This document shows positions 31,943-47,650 of a DNA stretch of 64,000 nucleotides, piece after piece (position 1 is the stretch's first letter; the number at the start of each line of letters is the position of its first letter). The stretch comes from Bdellovibrionota bacterium. Its GTDB lineage: Bacteria > Bdellovibrionota_C > UBA2361 > JBIKWN01. Location: NCBI GenBank assembly GCA_044356295.1, contig JBIKWN010000002.1, positions 1-64,000 on the forward strand, read 5' to 3'. The notes under the pieces are model-generated. The model was not told where the DNA came from and did no database searches. It worked only from the letters and a program-made list of their open reading frames with translations. The translations under genes were made by a program, and so were the position numbers.

Positions 31943-33328
31943 TTAATCTGAATGTATTAAATAAAACCCTCTTACATCGACATTACATGAAATCGCTGCG
32001 TCTAATAATGGAACCGTCTTGTGGTTAATTAAGGCACCACTTGGATCTAAAAAGATGACTCTTTGGATATTTCCAACTTGAGAAATACTTTCTAAGCGAA
32101 GCCCTACTTTTTCGCCCAATGATTGTAACGTTTTCTTAGAGACTAATGATGCATCGCTATGTATTACTTGAAGTTCAATTTTCGAAGTATTAATTGGTTT
32201 ATTAAGACTGAACTCATGTAATGTTACGTGAGGCAATCTGTATTGAGGAAGAGATAAAACTTGGAACCTTTCATCTTCTGGGGATTCATTATTTTGAATT
32301 GCTCGAACAACTGCGTCTGTAAAATCACTTGTCGACGAAGCATGAGGAGTATTTCTTGCTACATCACCAGTTCGAAATTCACCTTGTTCGTAAACAGCAT
32401 ACATACCATTTAACATTCTAATAGCTGATGCTTCTTCACCGAGATAGCTAAGCATCATTACTGAGCTAAGCATTAAGCTTGTTGGATTTGCAATTCCTTT
32501 GCCAGCAATGTCTGGCGCAGTTCCGTGTACTGCTTCAAACATTGCATGTTCAGAGCCAATATTTGCAGAACCAGCCAATCCTAAACCACCAATAATACCA
32601 GCTGCTTCATCACTTAAAATATCACCATGGAGGTTACTCATAAAAATTACTTCAAGGTCATGAGGATTAATCACAATCTGCTGGGCTGCATTATCTACAA
32701 TAAGGTCAGTTGCTAAAACATCAGGATATTCAGGCGCAATTTTTCTAAAAAGGGACAAAAGCATTCCTTCAGTTTGTTTGAGAATATTTGCTTTATGTGC
32801 GCAGCATACTTTTCGATGATCACCTTCTTGTGCGCGCTGTCGCGCCATTTCAAAAGATGCTCTGATTATTCGTTCACAACCTTCAAGCGTCATAACTTTA
32901 TCAGCAACGACAACTCCCGGTGCTATAGTTCTCTCTTGTCCGATATAAAGATCTTCCATATTTTCACGCACTAAAAGAAAATCAATAATTTTTCCTTCAT
33001 TTCTTTTTGAAGGAACAACTCTTGTACCAATACCAGGTAGCTCTTTTATAGGGCGTAAGTTTGCGTAAAGTTGAAGCTGGTTTCGTAACGTTACATTGAG
33101 ACTTTTAAATCCTCCACCAAGAGGCGTACCTAATGGACCTTTAAGAAGTGCATTGCTCTTTAATGCTGAAGCAATAACATCTTCCACGAATCTATTTGGA
33201 TCAGAAGTTGAGGTATTGAGAATATCAAAATCTAGATCGGCTCCGGATGCTTTTAAAACCTTTAATGTACCCTCTGTAATTTCCGGTCCAATTCCTTCTC
33301 CAGGAACTACTGTTACAAGATGTGTCAT
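31943..33328 (-). CDS. icd: Isocitrate dehydrogenase (isocitrate/isopropylmalate family) with C-terminal extension; NAD-type signature
   Basis: PGEGIGPEI, GGGFKSLNVTLR (isocitrate-binding S/N/R), YANLRP, RENMEDLY, HKANI, GDILSD, EAVHGTAPDIAGK; ~120-aa extra C-terminal domain; SD AAGGAG. Confidence 0.8.
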   Translation of the reverse strand: MTHLVTVVPGEGIGPEITEGTLKVLKASGADLDFDILNTSTSDPNRFVEDVIASALKSNALLKGPLGTPLGGGFKSLNVTLRNQLQLYANLRPIKELPGIGTRVVPSKRNEGKIIDFLLVRENMEDLYIGQERTIAPGVVVADKVMTLEGCERIIRASFEMARQRAQEGDHRKVCCAHKANILKQTEGMLLSLFRKIAPEYPDVLATDLIVDNAAQQIVINPHDLEVIFMSNLHGDILSDEAAGIIGGLGLAGSANIGSEHAMFEAVHGTAPDIAGKGIANPTSLMLSSVMMLSYLGEEASAIRMLNGMYAVYEQGEFRTGDVARNTPHASSTSDFTDAVVRAIQNNESPEDERFQVLSLPQYRLPHVTLHEFSLNKPINTSKIELQVIHSDASLVSKKTLQSLGEKVGLRLESISQVGNIQRVIFLDPSGALINHKTVPLLDAAISCNVDVRGFYLIHSD

Positions 33329-33340
33329 ATAAATATCTCC

Positions 33341-34498
33341 TTATGCTGCTAGTTGAAATTTTAGTTGAGACTCTAATCCTTGCATTGCTGCAATTGTGTG
33401 TGAATATTTCAGCTCTTCATGCTGACCAAGAATAGGAAGCATTGCTGCCCCCTCTTCGACTTCATTAAATGAAAATATAGGTCGAATTGGAGCTTGTTGT
33501 TCATCATTAAAACGAGCTACACGAGCTGCTGCAGTTTCAATATCTTGATCTGTACCACCTGTGACAATTGGAGCATGAGGATATTGTCCAGCAAGTGACT
33601 CTATCTTAGATGAATATGTAGCCCTAATACTTGAATCCCAACCAAGAGAGAATGGAGCAAAAAAAGGTAATTTTCCTTCACTAATACTATTCCATTCGTT
33701 GAATGATGCTTCAACTCGTTGATTATAATCTTGTATTGGTGATGCTTTCGGATCAAAAGAAGGTAAATAACAGTATCCTGTTGCTGCATTAAATAGATGT
33801 GATTCTGAAGCTTTGTTAACTCCCTTCTCATCACAAACGACAGCTATAAGATATGGATCTTTTCCCCATTTCTCTTTTGCATAACGCTTGAACTCAGCGA
33901 CTACTTCTGTGATTTTTTCATCACAATTATCAAAACTCAGTGAAAATGCACCAAAAGCAATGACCGGTCGTCCATCAATATGAACAAACTGTGGATGATC
34001 GATTGTCTCTTTTGAAAGATAATCAACCATCCACCGAGCTGTTTCTTTTGTAAGGTCGAAACAGCGATCATGCTCTTTAAAGCCTTCAGGCACTGGTGTT
34101 ACAACACGGGCTCTGTTGTAAGAAAACATTACAGAAAAAGGAACTTCTTCATTCAGTCGAAGCATTACTTGATATGGTTTTTCAAGTTCTACAATTGGTT
34201 TATCGTTAGCACATCCAACAAAAAGATCCCAAAAAAGCCCTGTACCTATTTTTGAAGCAAGCTCTAAATGCTGCGACATTACTTCTACATCAGCATCATC
34301 CCAATCTTCAGATCTATTTGGTAAAACAAACTGAGGATGAACATGATCTTTAAAGAGAGTTTCCTTCTCTAAAAATAGATCTCTGTAGGAATGAAGAGTA
34401 ACACCGTGATCCTTTGCCCTCGCTAAACGCTCAGGGCAAGAATTACTATGAGGATAAAAGTATGCAAGGTGAACGGGCTTTTCTGATGAAACTTCCAC
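33341..34498 (-). CDS. WbsX / glycoside hydrolase family 99-like domain protein (cytoplasmic)
   Basis: AYFYPH, D...M..H..LA...G, HPQF..IDGRPV, GWD.S.R, FNE..EG; GTG at 34498 follows the upstream stop with SD AGGAG; no signal peptide. Confidence 0.72.
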   Translation of the reverse strand: MEVSSEKPVHLAYFYPHSNSCPERLARAKDHGVTLHSYRDLFLEKETLFKDHVHPQFVLPNRSEDWDDADVEVMSQHLELASKIGTGLFWDLFVGCANDKPIVELEKPYQVMLRLNEEVPFSVMFSYNRARVVTPVPEGFKEHDRCFDLTKETARWMVDYLSKETIDHPQFVHIDGRPVIAFGAFSLSFDNCDEKITEVVAEFKRYAKEKWGKDPYLIAVVCDEKGVNKASESHLFNAATGYCYLPSFDPKASPIQDYNQRVEASFNEWNSISEGKLPFFAPFSLGWDSSIRATYSSKIESLAGQYPHAPIVTGGTDQDIETAAARVARFNDEQQAPIRPIFSFNEVEEGAAMLPILGQHEELKYSHTIAAMQGLESQLKFQLAA

Positions 34499-34499
34499 G

Positions 34500-35930
34500 T
34501 TACTCTCCTTGAACAACAACAGGTCTTGAAAATTCAAGAAGCGCATCTTTTATTGAAAGAACGCCCATACCTGAATCTCTTGATCCAGTGAATGGAAGAT
34601 CATCAGGACTTCTTTGGCATTGGGTATTAAAATTGATACGTGAATAAATATTTTTTGCTGCGTTCACAAGCTCTTCATGCCCAGCCTTATTCGTCGTAAA
34701 AATACTAACTTGTTGAGCAAAATTTGAATGCTTCATCCACTCTATGACTTCGCTCTCATCGTCAAACGGTATAATCGGTACAACAGGACCAAATTGTTCC
34801 TCATGAGCAATTCTTGAATCTACTGTCACAGGATATAATACTGCTGGTGTATATAAGTTTCCTTCTGATGTTCCACCGTTATTGTTTATTACTGTAGCGC
34901 CACTTGTAGCGATTGCATCGTTTACAAGCGTTTCCATAAATTCAACTGAACTTGGCTCAATTGGAGTGATCGTTACTCCTTCTTCCCAAGGATTACCGCA
35001 CTGTAATTTTTCAACTTCTTTTTTCATAAGTTTCGAGAATTGTTCAGCAACCGCAGTATGAACAAAGAGAGCTTTTAATGCTGTACAACGTTGACCGTTG
35101 AAACTAAGTGCCCCTTTTACACATTCAGAAGCAGTTTTTTCTAGATCCGCATCAGGAAGAATAATCCCCGGATTTTTTGCACCAAGACCCAATACAACTT
35201 TTAATTTATGCGGGTTAGGATTATTACCAAGTATTCTTTTAGCAGTATTGGTTCCACCGATAAAACAAAGAGCATTTAACTTACCACTTTCAACGATTGG
35301 TGTGATTAGTTCTTGTCCATCACCTGAAAGCATAGAAACAACCCCCTCTGGAAAACATTTCTTAAATCCCTCTTCCAAAGCAAGTACTGCTAATGCTCCA
35401 ACTTTTGGCGTTTTAATAATGACACTATTGCCCATCAAAAGTGATGGAAGCATAACTGTGAGTGTTTCATTGATCGGATAATTTGAAGGACCCATAAGAA
35501 GCATAACACCAAGTGATGCACGCTTGTCTTGATGAGGAGCTAAGGCAGAATCTATTGTTTTTTCCATGTATTCAATAGTTCTATCTACTTCTTTTAGAGC
35601 GTCGGATTTCGTTTTACAGATCTCCCACATCAGTAGATCTGCAATTTTTTCTCGGTTTTCAGATAAGTAATCATTAAACTTTCTTACTGCACTCGCTCTT
35701 GTCTCAAGAGAAGCACGTGCCCATTCACCAGTACCATAATCGTATGACTCAACTGCTTTATTAAGGGCAGCAAGGGCATCGTCTCTATTCATTAATGGAA
35801 CTTCACCTAAATATGTGCGATTACCATCGCTACCTAGTATTGGTGAAAGAACCTGCTGAGATCGTGCGATACTAGTTTGTGGATTATTCCCTGTATGTAT
35901 TGGTAATTGTGGAGCAACTGCTGTTTTCAT
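34500..35930 (-). CDS. Aldehyde dehydrogenase, GapN-like (non-phosphorylating GAPDH family), atypical active site
   Basis: LMWEICK, MGPSNYPINET, FIGG, FNGQRCTA (catalytic Cys), EEQFGPV, QCQRSPD..PF.G..DS; LGLGAKN in place of LELGGK. Confidence 0.82.
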   Translation of the reverse strand: MKTAVAPQLPIHTGNNPQTSIARSQQVLSPILGSDGNRTYLGEVPLMNRDDALAALNKAVESYDYGTGEWARASLETRASAVRKFNDYLSENREKIADLLMWEICKTKSDALKEVDRTIEYMEKTIDSALAPHQDKRASLGVMLLMGPSNYPINETLTVMLPSLLMGNSVIIKTPKVGALAVLALEEGFKKCFPEGVVSMLSGDGQELITPIVESGKLNALCFIGGTNTAKRILGNNPNPHKLKVVLGLGAKNPGIILPDADLEKTASECVKGALSFNGQRCTALKALFVHTAVAEQFSKLMKKEVEKLQCGNPWEEGVTITPIEPSSVEFMETLVNDAIATSGATVINNNGGTSEGNLYTPAVLYPVTVDSRIAHEEQFGPVVPIIPFDDESEVIEWMKHSNFAQQVSIFTTNKAGHEELVNAAKNIYSRINFNTQCQRSPDDLPFTGSRDSGMGVLSIKDALLEFSRPVVVQGE

Positions 35931-35970
35931 TGTGACCTCTTATTATTAATATTGTTGTTTCTTAATTACG

Positions 35971-36669
35971 TTATATAGATATGCCTCGTGGAATTTCTCT
36001 TTCGTTTTTTCCACCGAGGCAACGTTCTAAAGGGGCTATAGATCGTCCTCGCTCTGCAATACAAAATATTTCTCGCGAAGTTTTAAGATTCACTCCTGCT
36101 TGAGTTAACTCTTGAATAGTTTTCTCTTCATCACTTAGAATTCCAAGATTAGCATCACCTTGGTTTAAATTTACTGATTTTGTGGCATCAAAGATAACTG
36201 CAGTATTAAGACCTAATTTCTGTGCATCAAGCGCTGAAAATTTCACACAGTAATCAAAAGCTAAACCAACAATATCAATTTCACAGTCATGTAATGTTTT
36301 ACCTTGGCGTGCTGCGACTTCTTCAAGATATTGAGATAATCCAGTACTTTCTAGTTTGGCATTATCGAAAAATGCGCTATATGAATCGATATTTGGATTT
36401 GTCCCTTTAAGAATGATTTTATCTATCTCTGCAGTCAAAAGGTCTGATCGAAGCTCAGCACCAAGCGTTCCTTGAACACAGTGAACAGGCCATTCATCAA
36501 AACTACAATGATTTGCAGGATGCCAGTCTTGACTAGCAACTATGACATCATACTGACCCTCTGCAATCAATTGATTGACGATTGGAACAATCGTATCACC
36601 ATCGTTAACTCCTAATCCGCCTCCTGGACAGAAGTCATTTTGTAAATCTACAACTAATAATATTTTCAT
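35971..36669 (-). CDS. pncA: Nicotinamidase/pyrazinamidase
   Basis: VDLQNDF.PGG.L, QDWHP..H, WPVHCVQGT.GA, KG....DSYSAF.DN, GLAFDYCV (Asp-Lys-Cys triad). Confidence 0.93.
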   Translation of the reverse strand: MKILLVVDLQNDFCPGGGLGVNDGDTIVPIVNQLIAEGQYDVIVASQDWHPANHCSFDEWPVHCVQGTLGAELRSDLLTAEIDKIILKGTNPNIDSYSAFFDNAKLESTGLSQYLEEVAARQGKTLHDCEIDIVGLAFDYCVKFSALDAQKLGLNTAVIFDATKSVNLNQGDANLGILSDEEKTIQELTQAGVNLKTSREIFCIAERGRSIAPLERCLGGKNEREIPRGISI

Positions 36670-36722
36670 GTATCCCTCTCTTTATTCGTTCGTATTGTTT
36701 GTGAAATAACTTCTCAATCAAT

Positions 36723-36746
36723 ATCTAGAATCTAGATGGAATTATA
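36723..36746 (-). promoter_or_regulatory. pncA-operon -10 box followed by 15-bp palindrome (candidate operator)
   Basis: Minus-strand TATAAT at 36741-36746, then ATCTAGA-n-TCTAGAT at 36723-36737. Confidence 0.45.
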
Positions 36747-36788
36747 GAAAATGGAAAATAATTGTAATTTTTAACAGATTATTAACTG

Positions 36789-37763
36789 TTAACTGATAAT
36801 AATATCACTGGGATACAGTGTCGTTTTTATATCCTGAAACTTTGAAAGCACCTTTAAAGATATAATCTCATCACCAAACTCAGCATAAAGCTCCCGTGCA
36901 ATTTGTGCTGCTTGTTGAGGTCGAGATACTTCAACATTAATTTCATAATCCCAACTCCCAAAACATTCAATAACACTTATCATATTCGGATGCTGTGCAG
37001 CACATGCAAGAAGTTTCTGAGTAAACTGAGGATTAAGCCCTCTTCCAAATACAAGTATCTTAAATGTTTCATAATCAAATTTGGAAGGCTGAACACTGTA
37101 AAAATATCCTGTTAGAATTCCGGCATTTCGGAGTTTAGAGATACGAAGTTCAAAAGTTGAGAGAGGTACTTTTAATTTCTCTGCGAGTTTTCGGTGAGAT
37201 TCATTCCGAAAAGAACTAATTGCAACGAGAATCTTGTGATCTAATTCATCAATCTCTACCCGTTCACCACCTCTATTCATTGTCAAAGGTTTCGCTTTGG
37301 TTTTCGTTTCACTAAGATAACCCCGTGAAAGCAACGTAACAGAAAACTGTGATGAGACACTCTTTTGTTGAAAGATATTTCCAAATTTTTGAGTTAATTT
37401 ACCTAGAATAGTTCGAACTTCAGAGAAGTGTTGGCAGATGATCTCAATACCGAATTCAAATTCAGCACCCATTTCGGCAATCCAAACTACAGAAGGAGTC
37501 TGAATAAGAGCATCAATAAATGACTGGCGATATTTACGGCTTTCAGAGCCGAGTGAGAAAAAAATATTATGGGATGTATAGCCAAGTGCAAAAAGGTTAA
37601 TAAACGGAATTCTTGATATTACTTTTCGCTCTTCAAGCTGTCTCAGAGCATAACGAATTGTATGCTCTCGGAGCCCTACTAGTTTACGTATTTCTGGAAT
37701 TGTTAGATCGGCACGTAATTCAACAGCAGACAGAATTTTGGATTCTTTTGATGATAGCTTCAT
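36789..37763 (-). CDS. Tandem (double) Lrp/AsnC-family transcriptional regulator
   Basis: Two HTH+RAM repeats: LSSKESKIL...EHTIRYALRQLEE...LGY and IDELDHKIL...LAEKLKVPLSTFELRISKL...GIL...CFGSWDY. Confidence 0.82.
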   Translation of the reverse strand: MKLSSKESKILSAVELRADLTIPEIRKLVGLREHTIRYALRQLEERKVISRIPFINLFALGYTSHNIFFSLGSESRKYRQSFIDALIQTPSVVWIAEMGAEFEFGIEIICQHFSEVRTILGKLTQKFGNIFQQKSVSSQFSVTLLSRGYLSETKTKAKPLTMNRGGERVEIDELDHKILVAISSFRNESHRKLAEKLKVPLSTFELRISKLRNAGILTGYFYSVQPSKFDYETFKILVFGRGLNPQFTQKLLACAAQHPNMISVIECFGSWDYEINVEVSRPQQAAQIARELYAEFGDEIISLKVLSKFQDIKTTLYPSDIIIS

Positions 37764-37935
37764 GTGTGAAAATTAACATAGATTTATCAATTTGTATAAG
37801 AATTATCATAATACGAACTTTTCTGAGCGTTAGCATACCTCTACTGGTAGTTTCGCCAAGCCTTGATAACCCTTACATTTGAACTATGCTCTATCTATCG
37901 ATTGATTTAATTAGCTTCAAAATATAAAGAATTCT

Positions 37936-38721
37936 GTGGAAAAATACGACTTCTCTCTTATGATCGAGACTGAAGTATTATGCTCGTTAACTACTATTAA
38001 GATTAAGGATTCTTCCTGGGAAGATAAGCTTCATGAACTTAGCGAGTTACGATTATCCCGGTTTGCACTTTTTGTAACAGGTCTTAATTCATCAGAACGA
38101 ATAAGACTTTATGAAAAATTAAAGATATTAAGGAATCAATTCTTCTTCGAAATCCCTTTCGTGCACGCAACAAGTGATATGACGAATATCGAGTTTCATA
38201 AACTTAGAGATGAATTTGGCACAGATAAATTTAATCTTCATCCGACTCGATGCTATCCAATCAAAGATAACTTAGATTCAACTATCAAAGAAAAAATATA
38301 TATTGAGAACGCAACTCCAGATGGACTGCTTTTAAACACTGACATAGAAGGCTTTGCAGGTCTCTGTCTTGATTTATCTCACTGTGAGGACGCAAAGTAT
38401 TACAAAAAAGATGTATTTCAATCATTGGAAAATCTTACGTATCACTACCAAGTAGGTGCTAATCACATAAGTTCGGTACTACCTTCTGCTCACGCAATCT
38501 ATGAAGGAAGACCTATTCGGTCTAATCATATCTACTCTGGATTATCATCTTTTGATTATGTTTTAAATTATCATCCCAATTTCTGGGGAGCATATGCAGC
38601 TATAGAGCTTGATGATTCATTTGCAACTCAGCTTGAAGTTAAAACGTATATAGAGTCGATGCTCAAGAAAATGAACTCAGAATCTGAGATTGAAAATATG
38701 AATAATCAAGTTGCCGCATAA
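37936..38721 (+). CDS. Hypothetical protein, probable xylose-isomerase/AP-endonuclease-2-like TIM-barrel metalloenzyme
   Basis: Spaced motifs FVHA, NLHP, YIEN, LCLDLSH, NHIS, AIEL; start uncertain (GTG 37936 or ATG 37960). Confidence 0.55.
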   Translation: MEKYDFSLMIETEVLCSLTTIKIKDSSWEDKLHELSELRLSRFALFVTGLNSSERIRLYEKLKILRNQFFFEIPFVHATSDMTNIEFHKLRDEFGTDKFNLHPTRCYPIKDNLDSTIKEKIYIENATPDGLLLNTDIEGFAGLCLDLSHCEDAKYYKKDVFQSLENLTYHYQVGANHISSVLPSAHAIYEGRPIRSNHIYSGLSSFDYVLNYHPNFWGAYAAIELDDSFATQLEVKTYIESMLKKMNSESEIENMNNQVAA

Positions 38722-38749
38722 GAAAGTCTGATTCATCTAATATAGAGCT

Positions 38750-38804
38750 ATAAATATAATTATTACCATAATATTAATGTATTTATGGTAATAATTATAT
38801 TTAT
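38750..38804. repeat. Perfect 22-bp inverted repeat with 11-nt spacer upstream of pncB
   Basis: ataaatataattattaccataa (38750-38771) / ttatggtaataattatatttat (38783-38804). Confidence 0.9.
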
Positions 38805-38833
38805 TTGTTTATAAGTATCTTTTTAGACATAAC
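38805..38833 (+). promoter_or_regulatory. Candidate sigma70 promoter for pncB-nadE-nudix/nadD
   Basis: TTGTTT-N17-CATAAC directly abutting the inverted repeat. Confidence 0.4.
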
Positions 38834-38866
38834 CTTAATCAAGCTCATTTTTTAAGGAAAAAGGTT

Positions 38867-40171
38867 ATGGAAAGATTAATTGGAGATGACTCACATTTAG
38901 ACTTAGCATTAGAATCATTACATCCTAGGACTTCAACTCAAAACGCTAGTAAGGTACCGCTACAACCTCTAGTACTTACAAAAGCTGATATTGCACTTCC
39001 AGCGGATATTGCAACGTATACTGATAAATATTTTTCAAGAACAAAACAAATTCTTCAGGCTTCAGAAATAAATCCAACTGTCCGTGCACAAATTTTTATT
39101 CGAAAAGGTCCAGGAGAAATTGCAGGTATTACAGAGGCTCTCCATTTAATTAACGAAACTTCTGAATTCTTTAAAAACGGCGGCAAAGCCTGGGCACTAG
39201 AAGAAGGTGCAAAATACAATCCAAAAGATACCGTAATAGTATTAGAGGGAAAAATACAAGATATCGTCGAATTAGAAACTCTATACTTAGGTGTTATATC
39301 AAGAGCCACAACTGCTCGTAATGATGGCGTCTCGAGAGTAGATCTTGAATCAGTCAAAAAACGAATGGCCTTGGTCGTAGAAGCTGCTGCGGGACGCCCA
39401 GTTACATATTTTGGAGCTCGGCATTGGCACTGGCAGGAAGATGCAGCAATTGCAAAAGCAGCGATTGAAGGCGGTGCCACTGGAGCATCAACAGATGCTG
39501 GAGCACATGCTATTGGAAAAGCTGGCGTAGGAACCATACCACACATACTAGAAAATGCTTTTGCTGCAGTATATGGAAAAGAAAATGCGGTTGTTGAAGC
39601 AACAATTGCATTTGATACATTCATCGACTCAAACGTACCACGCATTGCATTAATCGATTACAACAATAAAGAAGTCGATGATTCTCTAGCTGTAGCAGAA
39701 AAATTAGGCGAAAAACTGTGGGGAATACGAGTCGATACCTGTGGAGAAAATGTCATGCAGGGAGCACTTGCATCGTTTGATTCTACTGATGTTGATCTAT
39801 GGAAAAAATCTGGAAACCAATTAATTAGCAAACTTCACCCTCATGCAAAATACTGGGTCGGAACTGGTGTAACAATTAGCGGTGTTTATGCAATTCGAAA
39901 AGCATTAAACGATGCTGGTTTTAAAAATGTAAAACTTATTTTGACAAGCGGTTTTGGCAATGCAGAAAAAGTCAAAGCATTTGCATATGCAGAAAAGCTT
40001 TTAGGAGTAAAACTTTTTGATCAACTTGGTGTCGGAGAACTATATCACACGCGCTCAACAACGATGGATATAGTTGCAATTCAAGACACACATAACGAAT
40101 GGAAACCACTATCTAAAGTCGGTCGAAGTTATCGACCAAATAAAAACCTCAGACCAGTTGAATTTAAATAA
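38867..40171 (+). CDS. pncB: Nicotinate phosphoribosyltransferase
   Basis: TDKYF..T, ELETLYLG, YFGARH, GTIPH (phospho-His), ALIDYNN, GIRVDT, TSGF, GVG; context with pncA/nadE. Confidence 0.85.
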   Translation: MERLIGDDSHLDLALESLHPRTSTQNASKVPLQPLVLTKADIALPADIATYTDKYFSRTKQILQASEINPTVRAQIFIRKGPGEIAGITEALHLINETSEFFKNGGKAWALEEGAKYNPKDTVIVLEGKIQDIVELETLYLGVISRATTARNDGVSRVDLESVKKRMALVVEAAAGRPVTYFGARHWHWQEDAAIAKAAIEGGATGASTDAGAHAIGKAGVGTIPHILENAFAAVYGKENAVVEATIAFDTFIDSNVPRIALIDYNNKEVDDSLAVAEKLGEKLWGIRVDTCGENVMQGALASFDSTDVDLWKKSGNQLISKLHPHAKYWVGTGVTISGVYAIRKALNDAGFKNVKLILTSGFGNAEKVKAFAYAEKLLGVKLFDQLGVGELYHTRSTTMDIVAIQDTHNEWKPLSKVGRSYRPNKNLRPVEFK

Positions 40172-40187
40172 ATATAAGGGAGGAAAT

Positions 40188-41921
40188 ATGAATTCTATAC
40201 AAGTACAAAAAATTACAATTAACGATCAAGAAAATGCTTCTTTACATGACCCCGTTAATCGCAAAGTTGCAATGGCTCAAATCCACAGCAACCCAGGCTC
40301 AATTGCTCTGAATACCATTCAAATAATTAAAGCAATAAATGAATCAAGGGAGAAAGGTGCCGCAATTGTTGTACTGCCTGAGCTCGCGATACCTGGATAC
40401 TGTGCAATGGATCTTTTTTATAACAGAGCATTCTTAAAGATGAATCGAGATGCACTAGAGAAAGTCATTCAAGCTAGTAAAGATATGACAGTCATCTGTG
40501 GGTTTGTTGATGAAGATCAGACAAAAACTGCACCAGGTAACAAACCATGGATCTATAATGCTGCTGCAATTATACATGACGGTAAACTCATAGCAGTTCA
40601 ACATAAAGAACTACTTCCTACGTACGATGTTTTTGATGAAAAAAGATACTTTAAACCAGCCCAAACACGTTCGGTTGTAGAGATACAGGGGACAAAAATC
40701 GGGGTAGCTATCTGCGAAGACCTCTGGTCAAAAGATAATGACAGGGACATTGTTGCTGATTTAGTCAATGGTGGAGCCGAAGTGTTACTTTCACTTAACG
40801 CTAGCCCATTTAGTATTGGAAAAACTGAAAGACGATTAGCTGTTCTTGAAGATGCAGCTCAAAAACATGGAATTCCAATTGTCTATACGAATTTAGTTGG
40901 AGCTCAAGATGGATATGATGGCGAAATAATTTTTGACGGTTCGAGCGCTGTTATTGATGGGTACGGAACTGTAGTATCAGTAAGTCAATCTTTTACTGAT
41001 TCAATTTCAATAGTTGATTTAGATGACCTTTCAAAAAACATCACAAATCACAAACCCGAAAGTGATATTGTACAGATTCATGATGCTCTCGTGATGGGAA
41101 TTAAAGAATTCTTTTCTCGAAAAGGATTACATACTGCTTACATCGGATTAAGTGGAGGAATTGATTCTGCCGTAGTGGCAGCACTTGCAGTAGAGGCATT
41201 AGGTGCAGAAAATGTTATCGGCGTTACTATGCCATCACATATTACTTCTTCAGAAACGAAAAGTGATGCTCTCGAACTAGCAGACCGTCTTGGGATTGTT
41301 TGTCATGAACGACCAATTGTTGAGGAGTATAATGCTTGGCTTAGTGGCGCACGAAGTAGCACCCAAAAAGAACCTTCTAGTCTTACAAAACAGAATAAAC
41401 AAGCAAGAATACGGAATTCGATATTACTTGAATATACAAATGAACATTCAGGAAGTTGTCACTTAAATACAGGAAATAAAACTGAGGTTGCTCTTGGATA
41501 CTTTACACTCGGCGGAGATGCTGGAGGAGCAATCTCTGTGCTTGGTGATGTCAATAAATTACGCGTCTATGAATTAGCGAAAACAATCAATCGTATCCAT
41601 GGAAAAGAAACAATTCCTGTAACAACTATTACACGTGCTCCTTCTGCTGAACTTGAAGTTGGACAAACCGATGCAAACTCATTACCGGCTGACTATGACA
41701 TCCTTGTGCCGCTCGTTGATTCAATTATTGAGACAGATTCAACTTTTGAAGAACTCGTAACAATGTATGGGGAAGAAACAGTCACAAGAACATTATCCCT
41801 AATAAGAAAAAATGAAGGAAAGCGTCGACAACTACCACCTGCAATACGGATTACGGATCATTCTTTCGGTATAGAACGTAGGATTCCAATGGATTATCCA
41901 TTAGAAACAATTGCAGCTTAA
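40188..41921 (+). CDS. nadE: Glutamine-dependent NAD+ synthetase
   Basis: Nitrilase triad LPEL, K.LLPTYDVFDEKRYF, ICEDLW; synthetase GLSGGIDS, TMPS, QARIR, TGNKTE, PSAEL; ATG 40188 has SD AAGGGAGG. Confidence 0.94.
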   Translation: MNSIQVQKITINDQENASLHDPVNRKVAMAQIHSNPGSIALNTIQIIKAINESREKGAAIVVLPELAIPGYCAMDLFYNRAFLKMNRDALEKVIQASKDMTVICGFVDEDQTKTAPGNKPWIYNAAAIIHDGKLIAVQHKELLPTYDVFDEKRYFKPAQTRSVVEIQGTKIGVAICEDLWSKDNDRDIVADLVNGGAEVLLSLNASPFSIGKTERRLAVLEDAAQKHGIPIVYTNLVGAQDGYDGEIIFDGSSAVIDGYGTVVSVSQSFTDSISIVDLDDLSKNITNHKPESDIVQIHDALVMGIKEFFSRKGLHTAYIGLSGGIDSAVVAALAVEALGAENVIGVTMPSHITSSETKSDALELADRLGIVCHERPIVEEYNAWLSGARSSTQKEPSSLTKQNKQARIRNSILLEYTNEHSGSCHLNTGNKTEVALGYFTLGGDAGGAISVLGDVNKLRVYELAKTINRIHGKETIPVTTITRAPSAELEVGQTDANSLPADYDILVPLVDSIIETDSTFEELVTMYGEETVTRTLSLIRKNEGKRRQLPPAIRITDHSFGIERRIPMDYPLETIAA

Positions 41922-41935
41922 CAGAGGGTAAAATA

Positions 41936-43681
41936 ATGACACTGTCTTCTTATTCTTTTCTTCAAGTAGGTGAAGCATCTTTCAGACAAGGTGAATTTAT
42001 CAGAACCTTTTTTGAACCTAAAACTACTTGTGATAATTTTTTAATTTGCGAGAGATTAAATAATGGTGAAGTCGAATTATTTATTAATAAATCTAGTAAA
42101 AGCATCGTCACGCAATTACAAACAGATAACCAAGAATTTTGGAGCCTTCCAAAAAGTAACGAATCACCTCAAACGTTTCCAAAATTTCCAACAGCTGGAA
42201 CTGCTTTGTATACCCATGCCTATTCTTTTCAAGATACATTGCCTTTAAGCCAAGGTACATGGGTCAAGGTTGATGAAATTTTTCAAAGATTTTTTGAAGA
42301 TAAACCAATTGGCATCGAACTAGTTCATGCAGCATTAAAAATACTAAACAAACATGAAAAAAGGCTTGAAATAAATGTAAGTAATCTTCCAGAAGCATCC
42401 CTGGGTCAACGATATGAAGAAGTTGAAAACAAACGTATCAAGAAAGAGGATTTAAAAAAGTGGGAGCAGGATACCCTAGATGTATTCCCAATAAACTGTA
42501 CTGAAATTGAGAACCCTGATCGTCCATTTATTTCCGTGGGAAGATATCAAGATGAAGATGGAGTTGAAAATGAATATGCAATCCGAAAAGGTTTAGACTC
42601 TCAAGATTCAGTCTGTTTCTGTTGGCATGGTGGAAATATTTACATGGCGATTCGACTTGGAGTTCGAACTGCACTTTCCCACTGGGAACAGGGACGAAGT
42701 TTAATTTCGATTGAAGGTGTTGCTGGATCTCTTGAAGAAAACGACCTTACTACAGAGGATATAATAAACCGTGCGATGGAAGAGACAAAAGAGGAACTAG
42801 GATTAGAACCAGCCTCACCTGGTATAAAGCTAGGAAGTTTTTTTACCGCATCAGAGGTAACAGCCGAAAAAAGTACTTCTGTTCTTGTCGAAGTAAATCC
42901 AAATAAAAAATGTACTGCTCATCACGCTGCTGATGAAATTCAGGATACCCGCTTTATTGAGCTTGATGAACTTATCGCTGCCTGCGATGAAGGTCTAATT
43001 ATTGATGAGCGTTTAGAGGTCTCAGCACGGTTGTTAAAAGCAATGTATAGGTACCATAACCCTCTCCACATCCCTCAATCAGCAGAGAAGATCGTTTTTT
43101 TAGGTGGAACTTTTGATCCTTTTCACAGTGGTCATTTAGCTCTTGCCAATGCTTGTCTGAATGAATCAACCACAGATGCAGTAATCGTTGTTCCAGCAAA
43201 GCAAAATCCATATAAGGGAAATCCATACATGCAAACATCTGAACGCAGAGATTCAATTGTAGCAACGCTTAGTGAATATCCAGGGCTCTACCTAAGCGAG
43301 CATGAACTTAATCAACGTGATTCTAGTGTATATACAGCGGACTCCTTAAAACTTTTTAAAGAGCAATTTCCTCAGTGTAAAAGCATTTTCCTTGCTGTTG
43401 GGAGTGATCTGCTGGGTTCAATGCATGCTTGGACAAAAAGAGATGAACTCTTTAAACGACTTGACGGTTTATTCATAGCCGCAAGAGATGACTTTTCAGT
43501 ATTTGATCTTAAAAATTATAAAGCAATGTATCCGAAGGAAGCATGGAGTCTCATCCAAAAAGCAAAGTTTCTGACTTTCCAGCAGAATATTTCATCAAGC
43601 TTAATTAAAAAACTACTTTTTAGCTCAGAGGATGTACCGACTGATGGCTTATTGCCAAGACGAGTTAGAAAATTTATTTAA
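41936..43681 (+). CDS. nadD: Nudix hydrolase - nicotinate-nucleotide adenylyltransferase (NadD) fusion
   Basis: Nudix box EGVAGSLEE...RAMEETKEELG; C-terminal NadD GGTFDPFHSGH, VP...NPYK, YTADSL, GSD...W, ISSS.IK; additional ~190-aa N-terminal region. Confidence 0.85.
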   Translation: MTLSSYSFLQVGEASFRQGEFIRTFFEPKTTCDNFLICERLNNGEVELFINKSSKSIVTQLQTDNQEFWSLPKSNESPQTFPKFPTAGTALYTHAYSFQDTLPLSQGTWVKVDEIFQRFFEDKPIGIELVHAALKILNKHEKRLEINVSNLPEASLGQRYEEVENKRIKKEDLKKWEQDTLDVFPINCTEIENPDRPFISVGRYQDEDGVENEYAIRKGLDSQDSVCFCWHGGNIYMAIRLGVRTALSHWEQGRSLISIEGVAGSLEENDLTTEDIINRAMEETKEELGLEPASPGIKLGSFFTASEVTAEKSTSVLVEVNPNKKCTAHHAADEIQDTRFIELDELIAACDEGLIIDERLEVSARLLKAMYRYHNPLHIPQSAEKIVFLGGTFDPFHSGHLALANACLNESTTDAVIVVPAKQNPYKGNPYMQTSERRDSIVATLSEYPGLYLSEHELNQRDSSVYTADSLKLFKEQFPQCKSIFLAVGSDLLGSMHAWTKRDELFKRLDGLFIAARDDFSVFDLKNYKAMYPKEAWSLIQKAKFLTFQQNISSSLIKKLLFSSEDVPTDGLLPRRVRKFI

Positions 43682-46467
43682 ATATTCATCTTACTAATTC
43701 GGATTCGTTCATCAATCATCTTTTCAGCTTCATCTCGATCATATTCCATTTGTGAAACAAATCCAGGAAGCAACATTTCATTCAATGCTTTTCTAGATTC
43801 ATCACTTAAAAAATCTGCATCCAGACAACATGTTTCAAGAATTGGGCGAACTCTCTCTTGAATAATTTCTCGTGCTTTATACAGCGCCTCTCTAGCATCA
43901 AGATTTTCTTTATTCTTGTTGAGCGAAGTGATATTGGAACGAATAATTTCAAGATCTTTCTTTAGTGAAATTAAACAATCTATTGCTTCATACAGATCTT
44001 GATAGTTCTGAGTATCCTCTTTCCCCTGCTTTTTCGCTTCCTGAACAGCAAAGCTTAATCGAAGTGCTGGAATCAATAATTCAACAGTACAAAATGAAGC
44101 ATTTTCTGCTTTTAAAGCATTAACTCCCTCTGGGCTATCTTCTAACACTTTCAAAATAGAATGCATTCTATTCATATACACTTGGTCATCACCGGTAGCT
44201 GTGCCGTATCTAAGAAGAGTCTCTGCAATTACTTCATTTTCCAACCAATTTTGATAGAAAAGATTCAGTTGGAGCTTATCTAAAACTCCAAACTTAACAA
44301 CACGCCGAACCGCATCCTGAATCTCGGGGCTATTGGTGTAGGCTTCTGATGATAGAATTTCTGGTGAAACTTCACCGTAAAGCTCAATGCGACGAATTTC
44401 TGCGGCAGCTTGTTGATGACTTAAACCAAGCTTTTGAAAATTTAGAGCCTGCCTTCCTCTCCAGGTTAGTTTTGCAACTTCTTCAACTGATGCTTCTCTT
44501 GGAATTAAATCATCACTAATAGTGACTGCTTTAATTTCAGACTCAGTTGCAATCTTACTAAAGTGTTCAAGACTACATGCAATTGGTTTTCCATGAATAT
44601 CTTTTTCAAGTCTATCTGTTAAAGTGTCGAGTCGATATGGAAGGAAGCCACCCATTAATTGGTGTGATGCATCATGCGAAGCATTCCCTGCAAATTCGCT
44701 CATTGAATGATGATTCACTCCATGAAGATAAACGGTAAAAAGAGGGATACAATCTCTAAAAAAAACACTCTCTTTTCCTTCGAGCGTCATGGGGACCAAC
44801 CCTATGTCATTTGCTGCTCGACTTAAAAGTTTTCGGTACGTTGCTGAGGTCATGCATAGTCGATGCAAATCAGGTGAAATACGACCGATAACATACTGTA
44901 GCGCACTTCCTTGATTGACCACCTGATCAAATTCATCCAATCGTTCCTGTGAATAAGCATCAAATACTCTTTCATCACGTTGTTTTTCTTTCTGATTAAT
45001 GATTCCAATACGTTCTAGTGATGCTTCAAGTAATCGAACTCCACCAGATAATCGGTGATCTGGAACATCACCTTCATCAATTAAACGTATTAGATCTGAT
45101 ATTTCTAAAGCGAAAACTCCCTGAACATTATCGATGATAGTAGGATTAATCTTAATGAACGCTTTATTTGATGCTTCATTACTATATCCAGGGGACGTAT
45201 ACTCTGGATGACCAATAAAGATTGTAGGGTTATCTTCAATATCTATCCCTGCTTTTTTTCTAAGAACTGAGGCTACACTTTTTTCAATAATCTCTTGATT
45301 CGGTTCAGTTCCCTCAAGAAAACCAGATAAACCGCAGATAATTTTTGCTGGTTGATCTGCTTGAATGACATGGGGGAATAGTTTTCGAGCCACTGCTCCT
45401 AGTACTGGTATGTGGTGACAGACAACGAAAACTTTATCATCTTGAATAAACCATGGAACAACATCTACTGAACGATCAAATGGAGTAACAATTTTTTCAA
45501 ATTCCCAATCCGATAATTCCTCTCCTGATGAATTTACATTAGTAGCAATTTGCGTTTCCATTGAGAGGAATCCGCAATCAAGATCCAAAGGTTCAGCGAT
45601 AGCTATTTGTTTTTTACTTTCACCTACTACTAGTCTGGCTTGATCGTAAGAGTATACAGGAAGCGTTGTTTCTTGGGTGTTGACCCCTTTGAAATCAATA
45701 GATGATTGAAAAAGCCAGTCTGCTAATTTTTCGGAACCAGTAATGTTGATTCCATTTTTTCTACAGAACCTAAGAACACAATCAACGAGCCTTCCGTCTT
45801 GAATCTGCTCCTTGTCATACAGTGAAAAGATCTGTTCTGCGGTTAGTGCTCGTCGTCGAAGCATTGGACGACTTGCGTCATCCCTGAATGACACAACATC
45901 TAGAGTCTGTTTTGAAAGCGGCTCTATCTCTATGCTCATGGCAATCACTGCTTCAGAATGAATAGATGGCGAAGGAAGATAATTTCCAAGTGAAGACGGC
46001 TTGCCTTTCGGAACGAGCCCAAGTTTCTGAGTAATCGTATAATCAATTGCTTGAGAAACCTCGGCACCACCTAACTTCTCTGATAGGTATCCACCAGGCA
46101 AATTAGTAACCATTGATTTTCCAATTGCAGGGCGCACAACATCATAAACAATAAATTTTACTTCGTTTGTTTTTGGACATCGAAACCATGGCAAAAGATC
46201 AAGTGTATCTTGTTGCTGGAAAATCGCTAACTCTTGAGGCAAACCTACTTTTTCTAAAGTACCATCTTCTGAAAGTAGTGAGAGTTGAAATGCTTTTGTT
46301 AATAAGATTTTAGATTGAATGTTTGAAGATTGAGTGCGAACTTCTGCAACGACTCTTGGATCAGTTTTATCCCAGGGATTCCAAACAAGATTATTTGGAT
46401 TTGATACGCCAATTCCTGAGTCATTTTTAGGAAGAAGTGTTATGTCTGCTGGTGGAAAATTAAGCAT
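43678..46467 (-). CDS. 929-aa protein: two degenerate Nudix-like domains plus C-terminal helical domain with HDxxH motif
   Basis: Repeat 1 D.LDLLPWF...RPA...NLPGGYL...KLG...LG.YLPSP...SE...IQDGRL; repeat 2 SVDVVPWF...GLSGFLE...KAG...G..YTSPG.SNE...VPDHRL; HDASHQ at 44662-44676. Confidence 0.65.
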   Translation of the reverse strand: MLNFPPADITLLPKNDSGIGVSNPNNLVWNPWDKTDPRVVAEVRTQSSNIQSKILLTKAFQLSLLSEDGTLEKVGLPQELAIFQQQDTLDLLPWFRCPKTNEVKFIVYDVVRPAIGKSMVTNLPGGYLSEKLGGAEVSQAIDYTITQKLGLVPKGKPSSLGNYLPSPSIHSEAVIAMSIEIEPLSKQTLDVVSFRDDASRPMLRRRALTAEQIFSLYDKEQIQDGRLVDCVLRFCRKNGINITGSEKLADWLFQSSIDFKGVNTQETTLPVYSYDQARLVVGESKKQIAIAEPLDLDCGFLSMETQIATNVNSSGEELSDWEFEKIVTPFDRSVDVVPWFIQDDKVFVVCHHIPVLGAVARKLFPHVIQADQPAKIICGLSGFLEGTEPNQEIIEKSVASVLRKKAGIDIEDNPTIFIGHPEYTSPGYSNEASNKAFIKINPTIIDNVQGVFALEISDLIRLIDEGDVPDHRLSGGVRLLEASLERIGIINQKEKQRDERVFDAYSQERLDEFDQVVNQGSALQYVIGRISPDLHRLCMTSATYRKLLSRAANDIGLVPMTLEGKESVFFRDCIPLFTVYLHGVNHHSMSEFAGNASHDASHQLMGGFLPYRLDTLTDRLEKDIHGKPIACSLEHFSKIATESEIKAVTISDDLIPREASVEEVAKLTWRGRQALNFQKLGLSHQQAAAEIRRIELYGEVSPEILSSEAYTNSPEIQDAVRRVVKFGVLDKLQLNLFYQNWLENEVIAETLLRYGTATGDDQVYMNRMHSILKVLEDSPEGVNALKAENASFCTVELLIPALRLSFAVQEAKKQGKEDTQNYQDLYEAIDCLISLKKDLEIIRSNITSLNKNKENLDAREALYKAREIIQERVRPILETCCLDADFLSDESRKALNEMLLPGFVSQMEYDRDEAEKMIDERIRISKMNI

Positions 46468-46676
46468 TGGTGAAGTAGGAACTATTTTATAATTGTACTT
46501 GTTCCCTAAGCAAAATTTTTGGTGAAAAAGAGCTGTTTTTATTAGTTTTTAAAGGGGAATTTATGATTTTTAGTATCTTTATTTTCTTCTTTCTTTTTAA
46601 AGAATTTTTCAGTCTAACAAAAGTTGATTAAGAATTAGTTATTAGAGACAATTCATAAACCCTGAAGGGTGAAATC

Positions 46677-46856
46677 ATGAACAAGGAAGTATCAGAGGCC
46701 CGCAAATTGCGGACTCGAAATTCGAAAAAGATGATCGGTTTGGGACTTGGAGTTTTGGCCATTGTTGGCATTCTCCTCGTTGTCAAAGATGCTGCTGCAT
46801 TGACCTTTGATCTCGACTTTAGCGATCTTGAAGACCCCGACAACGTAGGAGCCTAA
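46677..46856 (+). CDS. Small single-TM or secreted peptide precursor (59 aa), absent from the ORF track
   Basis: Manual translation MNKEVSEARKLRTRNSKKMIGLGLGVLAIVGILLVVKDAAALTFDLDFSDLEDPDNVGA; SD GAAGGGTG; downstream hairpin. Confidence 0.7.
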   Translation: MNKEVSEARKLRTRNSKKMIGLGLGVLAIVGILLVVKDAAALTFDLDFSDLEDPDNVGA

Positions 46857-46933: not shown

Positions 46934-47650
46934 TCAGGTCTTTTTATTATCCTTCCGAAATTTCTTTACATCCTCGCGAATAATTTCGATAGCTTCCTCT
47001 GGTGTATCAACGATCTCAATACATTTAAAATCTTTCTCAGAGATCAATCCACGAGTTAAAGGAAACTCTTTCGCCCACTCCATCATGCCTGACCAGAATT
47101 CTTTATCCATCAAGATTATAGGACGCATTGTAACATGTTGAACCTGTACAAGTTGCCAAACAAAAAATAGTTCAAGAAGCGTTCCTATACCACCAGGAGT
47201 ACAAACTACAGCATGTGATAGCCGCATAAAATCATCTAATCGAGAAGAAAAACGGTGATGATGACGTTTTACATCTAAGTGATTGTTAGCGTCTGGCTCC
47301 CATGGAAGTTCAATTGATAAGCCAATAGATCGTGATTTTGATTTTTTCTCTTCTCTTCCAAGGAGAGCACCACGATTTGCAGCTTCCATAAGTCCAGGGC
47401 CACCGCCGGTAAGAATATCAATACCGTCCCCCGCAAGAATTCGAGAAAGCTCAAAAGCTTTTTGATAATTCGGACCACCTGGTTTTATCCGAGCACTTCC
47501 AAAAATACAAACTCTATAAAAACGATTCTCATCTACTTTGACAAGTTCTTGCTCAACCAAGGTTGCACGGTGATACAATGATTGCAGCCTTTGTTCAAGA
47601 TGAGCACGTCGTTTTCCACGAACTCCTAGTGTCTTAGTTTTTCCTTTCAC
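46934..47650 (-). CDS. LOG family nucleotide phosphoribohydrolase
   Basis: VCIFGSAR, TGGGPGLMEAAN.GA, PGGIGTLLE. Confidence 0.9.
   Translation of the reverse strand: MKGKTKTLGVRGKRRAHLEQRLQSLYHRATLVEQELVKVDENRFYRVCIFGSARIKPGGPNYQKAFELSRILAGDGIDILTGGGPGLMEAANRGALLGREEKKSKSRSIGLSIELPWEPDANNHLDVKRHHHRFSSRLDDFMRLSHAVVCTPGGIGTLLELFFVWQLVQVQHVTMRPIILMDKEFWSGMMEWAKEFPLTRGLISEKDFKCIEIVDTPEEAIEIIREDVKKFRKDNKKT

Follow-up and report, generated by a model that had tools for sequence, protein, structure and literature searches.

A Probable Accessory NAD+ Salvage Cluster with Tandem-Nudix Proteins in a Bdellovibrionota Bacterium

The Locus and Its NAD+ Salvage Genes

What purpose does a gene set that would rebuild NAD+ from nicotinamide serve when it lies side by side with Nudix fusions, two dehydrogenase-family genes, and several genes of less obvious function? 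This question is raised by positions 31943-46856 of a 64,000-nt stretch of Bdellovibrionota DNA, hereafter called the window, which comprises positions 1-64000 of contig C82 (JBIKWN010000002.1) in a genome of 2.96 Mb (128 contigs, 93.6% complete). An original prediction had interpreted this block as one undescribed module that recovers NAD+ after its depletion. After our analysis, we consider it the best explanation, with a probability of roughly three in four, that the cluster constitutes an accessory, self-contained Preiss-Handler NAD+ salvage route linked to ADP-ribose.

All ten large open reading frames (ORFs) named in the original prediction were present at their positions and strands, and the housekeeping gene galU and a LOG gene (TIGR00730) were found as the flanks (coordinates of all features are given in Table 1). 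On the minus strand, a regulator gene stands at the head of a row that continues with pncA, a GapN-like aldehyde dehydrogenase (ALDH) gene, a WbsX-like gene, and a paralog of icd. The plus strand carries a TIM-barrel gene, a pncB-like gene, nadE, and a fusion of Nudix and nadD, in that order, and the gene for a 929-aa protein is convergent with the fusion gene. The bacterium is an uncultured lake-water organism, and the window DNA also occurs in lake-water metagenomes. In X2, an independent lake-water metagenome from another study, a fraction of 0.91 of the sampled words was present, and five of the eight listed contigs crossed gene junctions with 0 differences, which served as a check of the assembly.

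Based on family models, the Preiss-Handler steps could be tentatively assigned to genes of the block. PncA, present as a single copy in the genome (tblastn), and the glutamine-dependent NadE, which carries CN_hydrolase and NAD_synthase domains, both exceeded the cutoffs of their models. Since the NadE of a congener aligns from residue 39, the true start of nadE likely lies at 40188. The NadD domain of the fusion (aa 383-581) matched PF01467 with 49 bits (cutoff 21) and contains the stretches GGTFDPFHSGH and ISSS, which we take to be NadD motifs. The pncB-like protein resembles archaeal-type nicotinate phosphoribosyltransferases, with 2i14 as its sole solved relative (80.6 bits). Judged by family membership, PncA would convert nicotinamide to nicotinate, the pncB-like enzyme would join nicotinate and phosphoribosyl pyrophosphate (PRPP) to nicotinate mononucleotide (NaMN), the NadD domain would turn NaMN into nicotinate adenine dinucleotide (NaAD), and NadE would amidate NaAD to NAD+. 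The second Nudix domain of the fusion would most likely split ADP-ribose into AMP and ribose-5-phosphate, the latter returning as PRPP; it may also make the NadD activity responsive to ADP-ribose. The regulator, with two winged helix-turn-helix (wHTH) repeats, probably controls both the pncA row and the pncB row, with exogenous niacin, NAD+ turnover, or an NADase attack as candidate triggers.

We regard the block as an accessory route because the genome additionally harbors nadA (C11), nadC (C5), a stand-alone nadD (221 aa, adjoining ddl on C69), a second nadE (615 aa, on C70), and the gene for a true isocitrate dehydrogenase (ICDH; C109). The possibility raised along with the original prediction, that these might be the only nad and icd copies of the genome, thus does not apply, which speaks in favor of that prediction. 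The C70-type nadE was found in 61 of the 91 genomes of the order (37 of the 55 high-quality ones), where it often adjoins a stand-alone nadD on the same contig. Presence and absence among relatives, likewise suggested as a check, revealed a patchy pncB-like gene, with 27 of the 91 genomes, 17 of the 55 high-quality genomes, and 11 of the 21 families carrying it. Within the genus, G001 (62% complete) has the pncB-like gene, and G002 (86% complete) revealed no pncB-like, fusion, WbsX-like, or TIM-barrel gene with the queries used here. As a separate observation, it is the C70 "housekeeping" NadE that scored below every NCBIfam NadE cutoff (256 bits vs. 479), while the accessory copy of the window passes.

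The Conserved Core in Related Clusters

Comparison with ten loci (L032, L033, L034, L036, L038, L050, L051, L052, L053, and L056), which belong to six further families of the order, revealed a recurring set of genes, namely the regulator gene, the pncB-like gene, pncA, nadE, nadD, and at least one gene for a protein with the tandem-Nudix module. In relatives, this module appears either as a stand-alone protein of 430-505 aa or, in proteins of 930-1010 aa, joined to the same C-terminal domain as in the 929-aa protein of the window; in a large genus of the order, it forms part of the C-terminal half of a 1020-1070-aa protein. The same large genus displayed a canonical PF00293 Nudix domain (54-56 bits) fused to NadD in all three loci examined (L050, L051, and L056). 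At E<=1e-15, the module was detected in 12 of the 91 genomes, 11 of which also have a pncB-like gene, and eight carry both on one contig. The congener G001 keeps the order pncB, nadE, fusion, followed by RecQ and not by the 929-aa gene, and a search with a 5-row alignment resulted in four related loci, all from Bdellovibrionota or Deltaproteobacteria metagenome-assembled genomes. In regard to the conserved neighborhood on which the original prediction depended, this core does recur across families, while the icd paralog, the WbsX-like gene, and the TIM-barrel gene lie outside it.

Several clusters of relatives harbor additional genes. A protein of ~330 aa revealed a profile match to human mitochondrial NADK2 (7r4j, E 9e-23) and occurs in six of the loci (Table 1), GapN-like ALDH homologs were identified in L032, L036, and L053, and PRPP-synthetase-like genes adjoin the cluster in L055 and L051 only. 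Because the core of relatives adds the NADK2-like kinase, the GapN-like ALDH, and sometimes the PRPP-synthetase-like gene, the module would supply NAD(P) as a unit. The cluster-linked ALDHs share a peculiarity: the catalytic Cys is kept (GQRCTA), but the general-base Glu is exchanged for Gly (LGLGAKNP vs. LELGGK in GapN 3prl and 9dla), and LGLGAKNP was present in four of four such proteins, i.e., that of the window and those of L036, L032, and L053. Judged by these residues, the ALDHs without the Glu may form a non-hydrolytic or stalled clade.

Two further arrangements were observed in these loci. In L055, the PRPP-synthetase-like gene immediately precedes a pncB-like gene that is only distantly related (36% identical), a pairing of folds that equals that of Adps and Namat of phage NARP1. 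In L036 (12298-13281), an SLOG protein (LSDAT_prok, E 1e-10) and a 327-aa neighbor are encoded between the regulator gene and nadE.

The Nudix-NadD Fusion

The link to ADP-ribose is carried by the fusion protein, in which a tandem-Nudix-like module precedes the NadD domain. The 929-aa protein contains a homolog of this module in its N-terminal half (A3 profile over aa 26-373 of the fusion, E 1e-103; BLASTP E 4e-6), and the first Nudix domain of the fusion is reduced, as the A3 profile match begins at profile position 78. Close relatives of the fusion are rare, with only four among 5.8 billion clusters. A HMMER search of 1.84 billion representatives for relatives of the module revealed 443 at E<=0.001, of which 70 reached E<=1e-30; the ~70 representatives of the tandem-Nudix family at the latter threshold are either ~430 aa long or comprise 860-1000 aa, including a helical domain with the pattern HDxxH...E...N.

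Eight residues of the fusion family, E286, E287, G289, E311, E319, D333, E334, and D337, were invariant in five of five short-module sequences of A4, and the same set was found in eight sequences of A1. Most of them align in register, by profile alignment, with the EEAG, SER, EVD, and DENED motifs of the E. coli ADP-ribose pyrophosphatase 1g0s, in which the Glu of DENED is presumably the catalytic base. The fusion matched TIGR00052 (YffH/AdpP) with E 5e-4, and among single-domain relatives of the second Nudix domain, 19 of the 23 weaker representatives scanned matched this model of the ADP-ribose diphosphatase YffH/AdpP, all of them below its cutoff. No PF00293 match was found in the Nudix module of the fusion and no HTH match in the Nudix modules of the block. 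Taken as a reading of conserved residues, the assignment of the second Nudix domain to the YffH/AdpP branch of ADP-ribose pyrophosphatases, with its catalytic residues kept, appears supported. Since the invariant residues align with the 1g0s motifs and the relatives match YffH/AdpP, the fusion would most likely be a pyrophosphatase for ADP-ribose (or a close nucleoside diphosphate (NDP)-sugar) joined to NadD, and its two Nudix folds would mimic the usual homodimer in a single chain as a pseudo-dimer.

Among the 23 representatives scanned, two showed other domain combinations with a Nudix domain of the second-domain type: P0108 (442 aa) with a PncA-like isochorismatase domain and P0109 (685 aa) with a TIR-like domain.

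The 929-aa Protein: Enzyme or Sensor

The 929-aa protein was modelled by AF2 together with 43 relatives (pLDDT 89.7). Residues 33-488 of the model matched the two-Nudix protein EvaA (4j7g; VIA Z 20.1, 358 residues, rmsd 4.3 Å; Foldseek E 1.6e-8), while residues 53-241 matched the ADP-ribose pyrophosphatase 1viq (Z 15.4; ADP-ribose pyrophosphatases in general Z 13-15) and residues 283-489 matched NUDT14 (Z 11.6). Altogether, the best single-domain structural matches of the module were ADP-ribose pyrophosphatases. Because the model matches EvaA as a whole and single Nudix structures with each half, the tandem-Nudix architecture originally proposed for this protein holds. At the catalytic positions, the window's protein displays ITQKLGL, LRKKAGI, and DN..G. 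Its family shows EE.G and DE..D in place of the latter two, so the catalytic Glu residues of the Nudix box are missing and EE, DE, and D are lost in both Nudix domains. The second domain of the fusion keeps the residues of an ADP-ribose pyrophosphatase, whereas the 929-aa protein has lost them. We read its double Nudix, from these exchanges, as a putative ligand-binding pseudo-enzyme that would regulate or direct the HDxxH domain at the C-terminus.

This C-terminal domain (aa 488-929; window 43678-45006) gave an all-alpha model with a pLDDT of 86.6 when modelled alone and carries the invariant residues F570, H598, D599, H602, E644, and N783, the last five of which make up the HDxxH...E...N pattern. 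The model had no Foldseek match at E<=0.001 and reached at best a VIA Z of 9.5 with generic helical bundles, which does not show a new fold. The domain was always seen attached to a tandem-Nudix module, and a search for shorter stand-alone forms resulted only in a fragment of the same protein. Sequence searches against solved structures with the 401-, 261-, and 929-aa proteins and with a profile of the C-terminal domain yielded nothing usable. A Coq4-like HDxxH motif was considered and set aside, as no tool result supported it.

The loss of catalytic residues in the 929-aa protein leads to the strongest of the alternatives, according to which the tandem-Nudix modules in general are not enzymes but sensors that bind ADP-ribose or a related nucleotide and tune the NadD or HDxxH domain as in NrtR. 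The NrtR Nudix domain 3gz8 was indeed among the structural matches of the 929-aa model (Z 12.6), NrtR is described as a Nudix protein that binds ADP-ribose without catalysis (passages of PMC2330246), and the reduced first Nudix domain of the fusion would fit the same idea. Yet the eight residues E286...D337 of the fusion are invariant in all five short-module sequences and mostly coincide with catalytic motifs of the E. coli enzyme, and the Nudix domain fused to NadD in the large genus passes the PF00293 cutoff. We therefore consider a purely sensory role possible but clearly the less likely account, and keep to a salvage route in which the fusion would be enzymatically active on ADP-ribose.

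Several results weigh against the accessory salvage route linked to ADP-ribose. The pncB-like protein remained below all NCBIfam cutoffs (NF006415 159 bits, cutoff 243; NF005529 157 bits, cutoff 378), and PF04095, the NadV/PncB family, matched neither this protein nor anything else in the genome, so that nicotinate is a putative substrate only. The NadD domain reached 90 bits with TIGR00482, below the cutoff of 112. In regard to the Nudix module, the sequence link to the solved ADP-ribose pyrophosphatase 1g0s is weak (E 0.014), and the Nudix box of the fusion is non-canonical in that its G-x5-E part does not fit the consensus. Neither the NADK2-like kinase nor the PRPP-synthetase-like gene is present in the window, and tblastn detected no such kinase in the 93.6%-complete genome. 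The cluster-linked ALDH, lacking the general-base Glu, may fail to function as a GapN-type dehydrogenase. Finally, a crude palindrome search of 24 intergenic regions revealed no shared operator, nor did 21 intergenic regions of related loci have a motif in common.

Regulator and Non-Coding Elements

The regulator (324 aa) is composed of two winged-helix repeats of the Lrp/AsnC type and showed no Nudix domain match. Its orthologs in other families, with 40-50% identity, adjoin pncB-like or nadD genes, and the cluster regulators score best within a regulator family that is greatly enlarged in the order. Of the 91 genomes, 62 contain this two-wHTH family (320-350 aa), the maximum being 17 matches, in G017.

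Between the regulator gene and pncA, we identified a near-perfect palindrome, ATCTAGAATCTAGAT, whose 7-nt arms flank a single central base and which represents a candidate operator. With 0-1 mismatches allowed, the window contains no second copy, and related loci revealed no counterpart. A second element, an AT-rich inverted repeat with 31-nt arms that are 87% complementary, lies between the TIM-barrel gene and the pncB-like gene and would form an RNA hairpin; the 149-nt region had a minimum free energy of -39.2 kcal/mol (z -6.4), which none of 200 shuffles matched. It is probably a terminator or attenuator. A search against Rfam resulted in no riboswitch and no family for the hairpin, its three matches all being far below the gathering scores, and scans for sigma-70 promoters and terminators did not rise above the shuffled expectation.

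NADases, Defence, and a Possible New Branch

The original prediction had gone beyond salvage as such, proposing recovery after NAD+ depletion. In its full form, this reading sees a dedicated module that is induced after NADases (defence effectors, toxins of competitors or prey, or toxin-antitoxin toxins) have cut NAD+, and that recycles both nicotinamide and ADP-ribose to NAD(P)H. The idea is plausible: the cluster is accessory and patchy and duplicates universal steps, it encodes an ADP-ribose-pyrophosphatase-type Nudix domain with catalytic residues, PRPP-synthetase-like genes stand in the clusters of two relatives and the NADK2-like kinase in others, and relatives of this Nudix domain are joined to a TIR-like (P0109) and a PncA-like domain (P0108). 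A precedent exists in Pseudomonas, where a salvage cluster de-repressed via ADP-ribose offsets the toxin NatT, as parts of PMC11535050 report. On the other side, PADLOC identified no defence system in the 53 ORFs of the window, giving generic matches only (a DEAD-box helicase, wHTH, and two methyltransferases), and RES, TIR_2, and SIR2_2 were not found in the 93.6%-complete genome. No mobile-element genes were seen nearby; the flanks of the cluster carry housekeeping genes (for exonuclease VII, a 2-oxoacid dehydrogenase E2 subunit, lipoyl synthase, CysRS, FliG, RNase HII, and PNP oxidase), and the GC content is even (0.35-0.41) throughout. Given that PADLOC result, the housekeeping flanks, and the even GC content, the locus does not resemble a mobile or defence island. 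The redox part is weak as well: since the ALDH lacks the general-base Glu of GapN, and with an icd paralog that is specific to this genome, the proposal that co-expressed dehydrogenases re-reduce the new NAD+ pool is weakened. Nothing that we could read from the sequence ties the cluster to an NADase, and we rate recovery from NADase attack as its specific purpose rather improbable.

A bolder reading, which we hold for speculative and give still less credence, is that the tandem-Nudix family may define a branch of NAD(P) metabolism or signalling that has not been described before, in which the degenerate double Nudix would sense ADP-ribose or another NAD+-derived nucleotide and drive a new metal-dependent enzyme that, together with the Glu-less ALDH and the NADK2-like kinase, would convert or detoxify NAD+ breakdown products. 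If true, this would be a bacterial counterpart, built from classical enzymes, of the NAD+ reconstitution of phages.

Additional Genes of the Block

Four further features of 31943-46856, the icd paralog, the WbsX-like gene, the TIM-barrel gene, and the 71-aa ORF, revealed no relatives in the related clusters (blastp, 1e-3). The icd paralog gave its best NCBIfam score with NF006673 (349 bits, cutoff 509) and stayed below every equivalog cutoff. It is 40% identical to the true ICDH encoded on C109 (NF006673, 764 bits), with which it shares stretches around GFKSLNVT, LYAN(L/V)RP, and RENxEDLY, and none of the other 90 genomes of the order gave a match to it at E<=1e-90. Even at E<=5, the 401-aa protein itself matched no Pfam family; P0013, which is 52% identical to it, matched PF14307 (WbsX) over its full length with 38 bits (cutoff 25.1). 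The TIM-barrel protein was characterized by an Atlas model (pLDDT 0.87) with TM values of 0.62-0.65 to PF01261 clusters. The 71-aa ORF, which had been regarded as a small peptide gene closing the block, showed neither a family match nor a relative among the ORFs of related loci, and the LOG gene beyond it revealed no linkage to the cluster in relatives.

That these genes nevertheless form one functional system with the salvage genes appears quite unlikely. The tight packing of pncA, ALDH, WbsX-like gene, and icd paralog on one strand, with intergenic gaps of 40, ~1, and 12 nt, speaks for it, but none of the four additional features recurs in related clusters, nothing close to the icd paralog was detected in the other 90 genomes, and a hairpin separates the TIM-barrel gene from the pncB-like gene. 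Moreover, the congener G001 carries its WbsX-like gene (71% identical) among genes for an M48 peptidase, a carbonic anhydrase, and a radical-SAM protein and its TIM-barrel gene (57%) among glycosyltransferase genes, yet keeps pncB, nadE, and the Nudix-nadD fusion together. Based on the missing relatives, the placement in G001, and the hairpin, the block consists of a conserved core and genome-specific passengers, so that the original delimitation of 31943-46856 as one block was too wide. The icd paralog and the WbsX-like gene count as genome-specific additions, and the TIM-barrel gene and the 71-aa ORF probably stand outside the NAD unit. The opposite notion, a plain housekeeping locus as the only NAD+ salvage or biosynthesis site of the organism, fits the housekeeping flanks, the uniform GC content, and the missing mobile genes but is highly improbable in view of nadA, nadC, a second nadD, and a second nadE elsewhere, of the other nadE type being the one conserved across the order, and of G002, which lacks the genes named above with these queries.

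Two domain combinations were observed elsewhere in the window. One ORF of 1933 aa (9436-15237) combines TamB, POTRA, and Omp85 domains, so that TamA-like and TamB-like parts form a single polypeptide, and at 28744-29778 the adenylyltransferase domain of HldE (rfaE domain II) is fused to the heptose-bisphosphate phosphatase GmhB.

Table 1. Features of the NAD+ salvage block in the window, its flanks, and corresponding genes elsewhere in the genome and in related loci.
Feature	Position	Strand	Evidence or remark
galU	30993-31892		flank of the block
Isocitrate-dehydrogenase-family paralog, 461 aa	31943-33328	-	PF00180, E 1e-86; last gene of the left row
WbsX-like (PF14307-related) protein, 401-aa ORF	33341-34546	-	likely start 34498, giving 385 aa
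GapN-like ALDH, 476 aa	34500-35930	-	PF00171, E 5e-89; best solved relatives all GapN (3prl, 247 bits)
Nicotinamidase PncA, 232 aa	35971-36669	-	NF008623, 182 bits (cutoff 174)
Palindrome (candidate operator)	36723-36737		54 nt upstream of pncA
Two-wHTH regulator, 324 aa	36789-37763	-	PF13412 at aa 172-217; weak TrmB/MarR-type matches at aa 3-52
TIM-barrel protein, xylose-isomerase/AP-endonuclease-2-like, 261 aa	37936-38721	+	Atlas model only
Inverted repeat, RNA hairpin	38741-38813	+	probably terminator or attenuator
pncB-like, archaeal-type nicotinate phosphoribosyltransferase-like, 434 aa	38867-40171	+	PRK08662/PRK07188 type
Glutamine-dependent NAD+ synthetase NadE (ORF)	40074-41921	+	NF010588, 502 bits (cutoff 479)
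Nudix-NadD fusion, 581 aa	41936-43681	+	tandem-Nudix-like module aa ~26-373, NadD aa 383-581; PF01467 and TIGR00482 at C-terminus
929-aa tandem-Nudix protein	43678-46467	-	AF2 model; degenerate tandem Nudix aa ~30-490, all-alpha C-terminal domain aa ~490-929
71-aa ORF	46628-46843	-	unsupported as gene
LOG/TIGR00730 gene	46934-47650		flank of the block
Second NadE, 615 aa	G000:C70:130039-131886		elsewhere in the genome
Cluster-linked ALDHs of relatives	L036:18158-19708, L032:2877-4523, L053:12291-13904		LGLGAKNP
NADK2-like proteins of relatives	L036:17152-18177, L033:5965-6981, L032:1891-2874, L034:11085-12704, L050:10880-11929, L056:4074-5111		fused to NadD in L034
PRPP-synthetase-like genes of relatives	L055:6915-7868, L051:17600-18988		adjoin the cluster

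Comparison with Known Systems

Pseudomonas carries second copies of nadD and nadE elsewhere in its genome. Clusters with the same salvage genes are on record there and in other bacteria: Rodionov et al. 2008 describe nrtR-nadD<>pncA-pncB-nadE in Pseudomonas and nrtR-pncA-pncB-nadD-nadE in Clostridium acetobutylicum, with NrtR as a catalytically degenerate ADP-ribose-type Nudix domain fused to a wHTH domain and ADP-ribose as its likely effector, and also mention prs-nadV operons with a second prs copy (passages of PMC2330246). In P. aeruginosa, activity of the NADase toxin NatT leads to de-repression of the salvage cluster (pncB, nadD2, and nadE), which offsets this toxin (PMC11535050). Since both are in print, the gene combination and the recovery idea have precedents, and the view that the combination is undescribed had to be given up. 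The cluster of this study shares with the NrtR clusters the four Preiss-Handler genes in divergent rows and a protein with a Nudix fold of the ADP-ribose branch, and with the Pseudomonas cluster a nadD copy of its own (nadD2; PMC11535050). In contrast to the NrtR regulon, it possesses no Nudix-wHTH fusion but a two-repeat regulator of the Lrp/AsnC type; its Nudix folds occur in tandem and are joined in one protein to NadD and in another to an HDxxH domain of 440 aa; and its pncB belongs to the archaeal PRK08662 type and not to PF04095, while relatives add the NADK2-like kinase and the ALDH.

In NadM-Nudix proteins, a NadM-type nicotinamide mononucleotide (NMN) adenylyltransferase (NMNAT) forms the N-terminal and an ADP-ribose pyrophosphatase the C-terminal part. 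Like the fusion, they thus unite a pyridine-nucleotide adenylyltransferase and an ADP-ribose-pyrophosphatase-type Nudix domain in one polypeptide, but the fusion displays the reverse order, with Nudix at the N-terminus, a transferase of the NadD type, and a tandem Nudix. Its best models were NadD equivalogs, and NF003786 (NMNAT/Nudix) matched only with E 1e-4 over 63 residues. Such bifunctional NMN adenylyltransferases/ADP-ribose pyrophosphatases are known from Synechocystis and others (cited in PMC2330246). With EvaA-type NDP-hexose 2,3-dehydratase (4j7g), its best whole-module structural match, the module shares two Nudix folds in one chain; the identity is only 9-12%, however, no PF03559 match was found in the module, its single-domain relatives are ADP-ribose/NDP-sugar pyrophosphatases, and the context is NAD+ salvage and not deoxysugar synthesis.

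Phages rebuild NAD+ by NARP1, which consists of Adps (PRPS-like) and Namat, by the NMN route of NARP2 (NadV and NMNAT), or by NARP3 (PnuC and NadR; PMC13464706, 10.1101/2024.02.11.579819), and some NAD-jumbo phages cluster pncB, nadD, and nadE (parts of PMC11662467). The purpose of the NARP pathways and of our cluster could be the same, as NAD+ would be rebuilt from its breakdown products. Unlike those of phages, the cluster is chromosomal in a bacterium, with no phage genes nearby. Pfam scans of the window ORFs of at least 90 aa (37 ORFs and the block) revealed no PRPS-like, PnuC, or NadR domains; with none of the NARP enzymes encoded in the window, and PF04095 not found in the genome, the statement that its enzymes differ from those of NARP1 and NARP2 is supported.

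Word searches of open-access text, without supplementary files, resulted in no description of the regulator type, the tandem-Nudix fusions, the HDxxH domain, the NADK2-like kinase, or the Glu-less ALDH in Bdellovibrionota. Clusters that rebuild NAD+ and sense ADP-ribose are central to the survival of bacteria and phages in the face of NAD+-destroying toxins and immune systems, and this lineage seems to harbor a differently wired version, with another regulator family, a double Nudix-NadD, and a dead copy of the module attached to a confidently folded domain; in relatives, the rewiring adds an NAD kinase of the animal mitochondrial type and an ALDH without its general base. Altogether, the pathway itself is known and the cluster represents no new principle, whereas the regulator family, the tandem-Nudix module and its fusions, the HDxxH domain, the NADK2-like kinase, and the Glu-less ALDH are what differs here, and it is these uncharacterized protein parts, as targets for enzymology, on which the interest of the locus rests.

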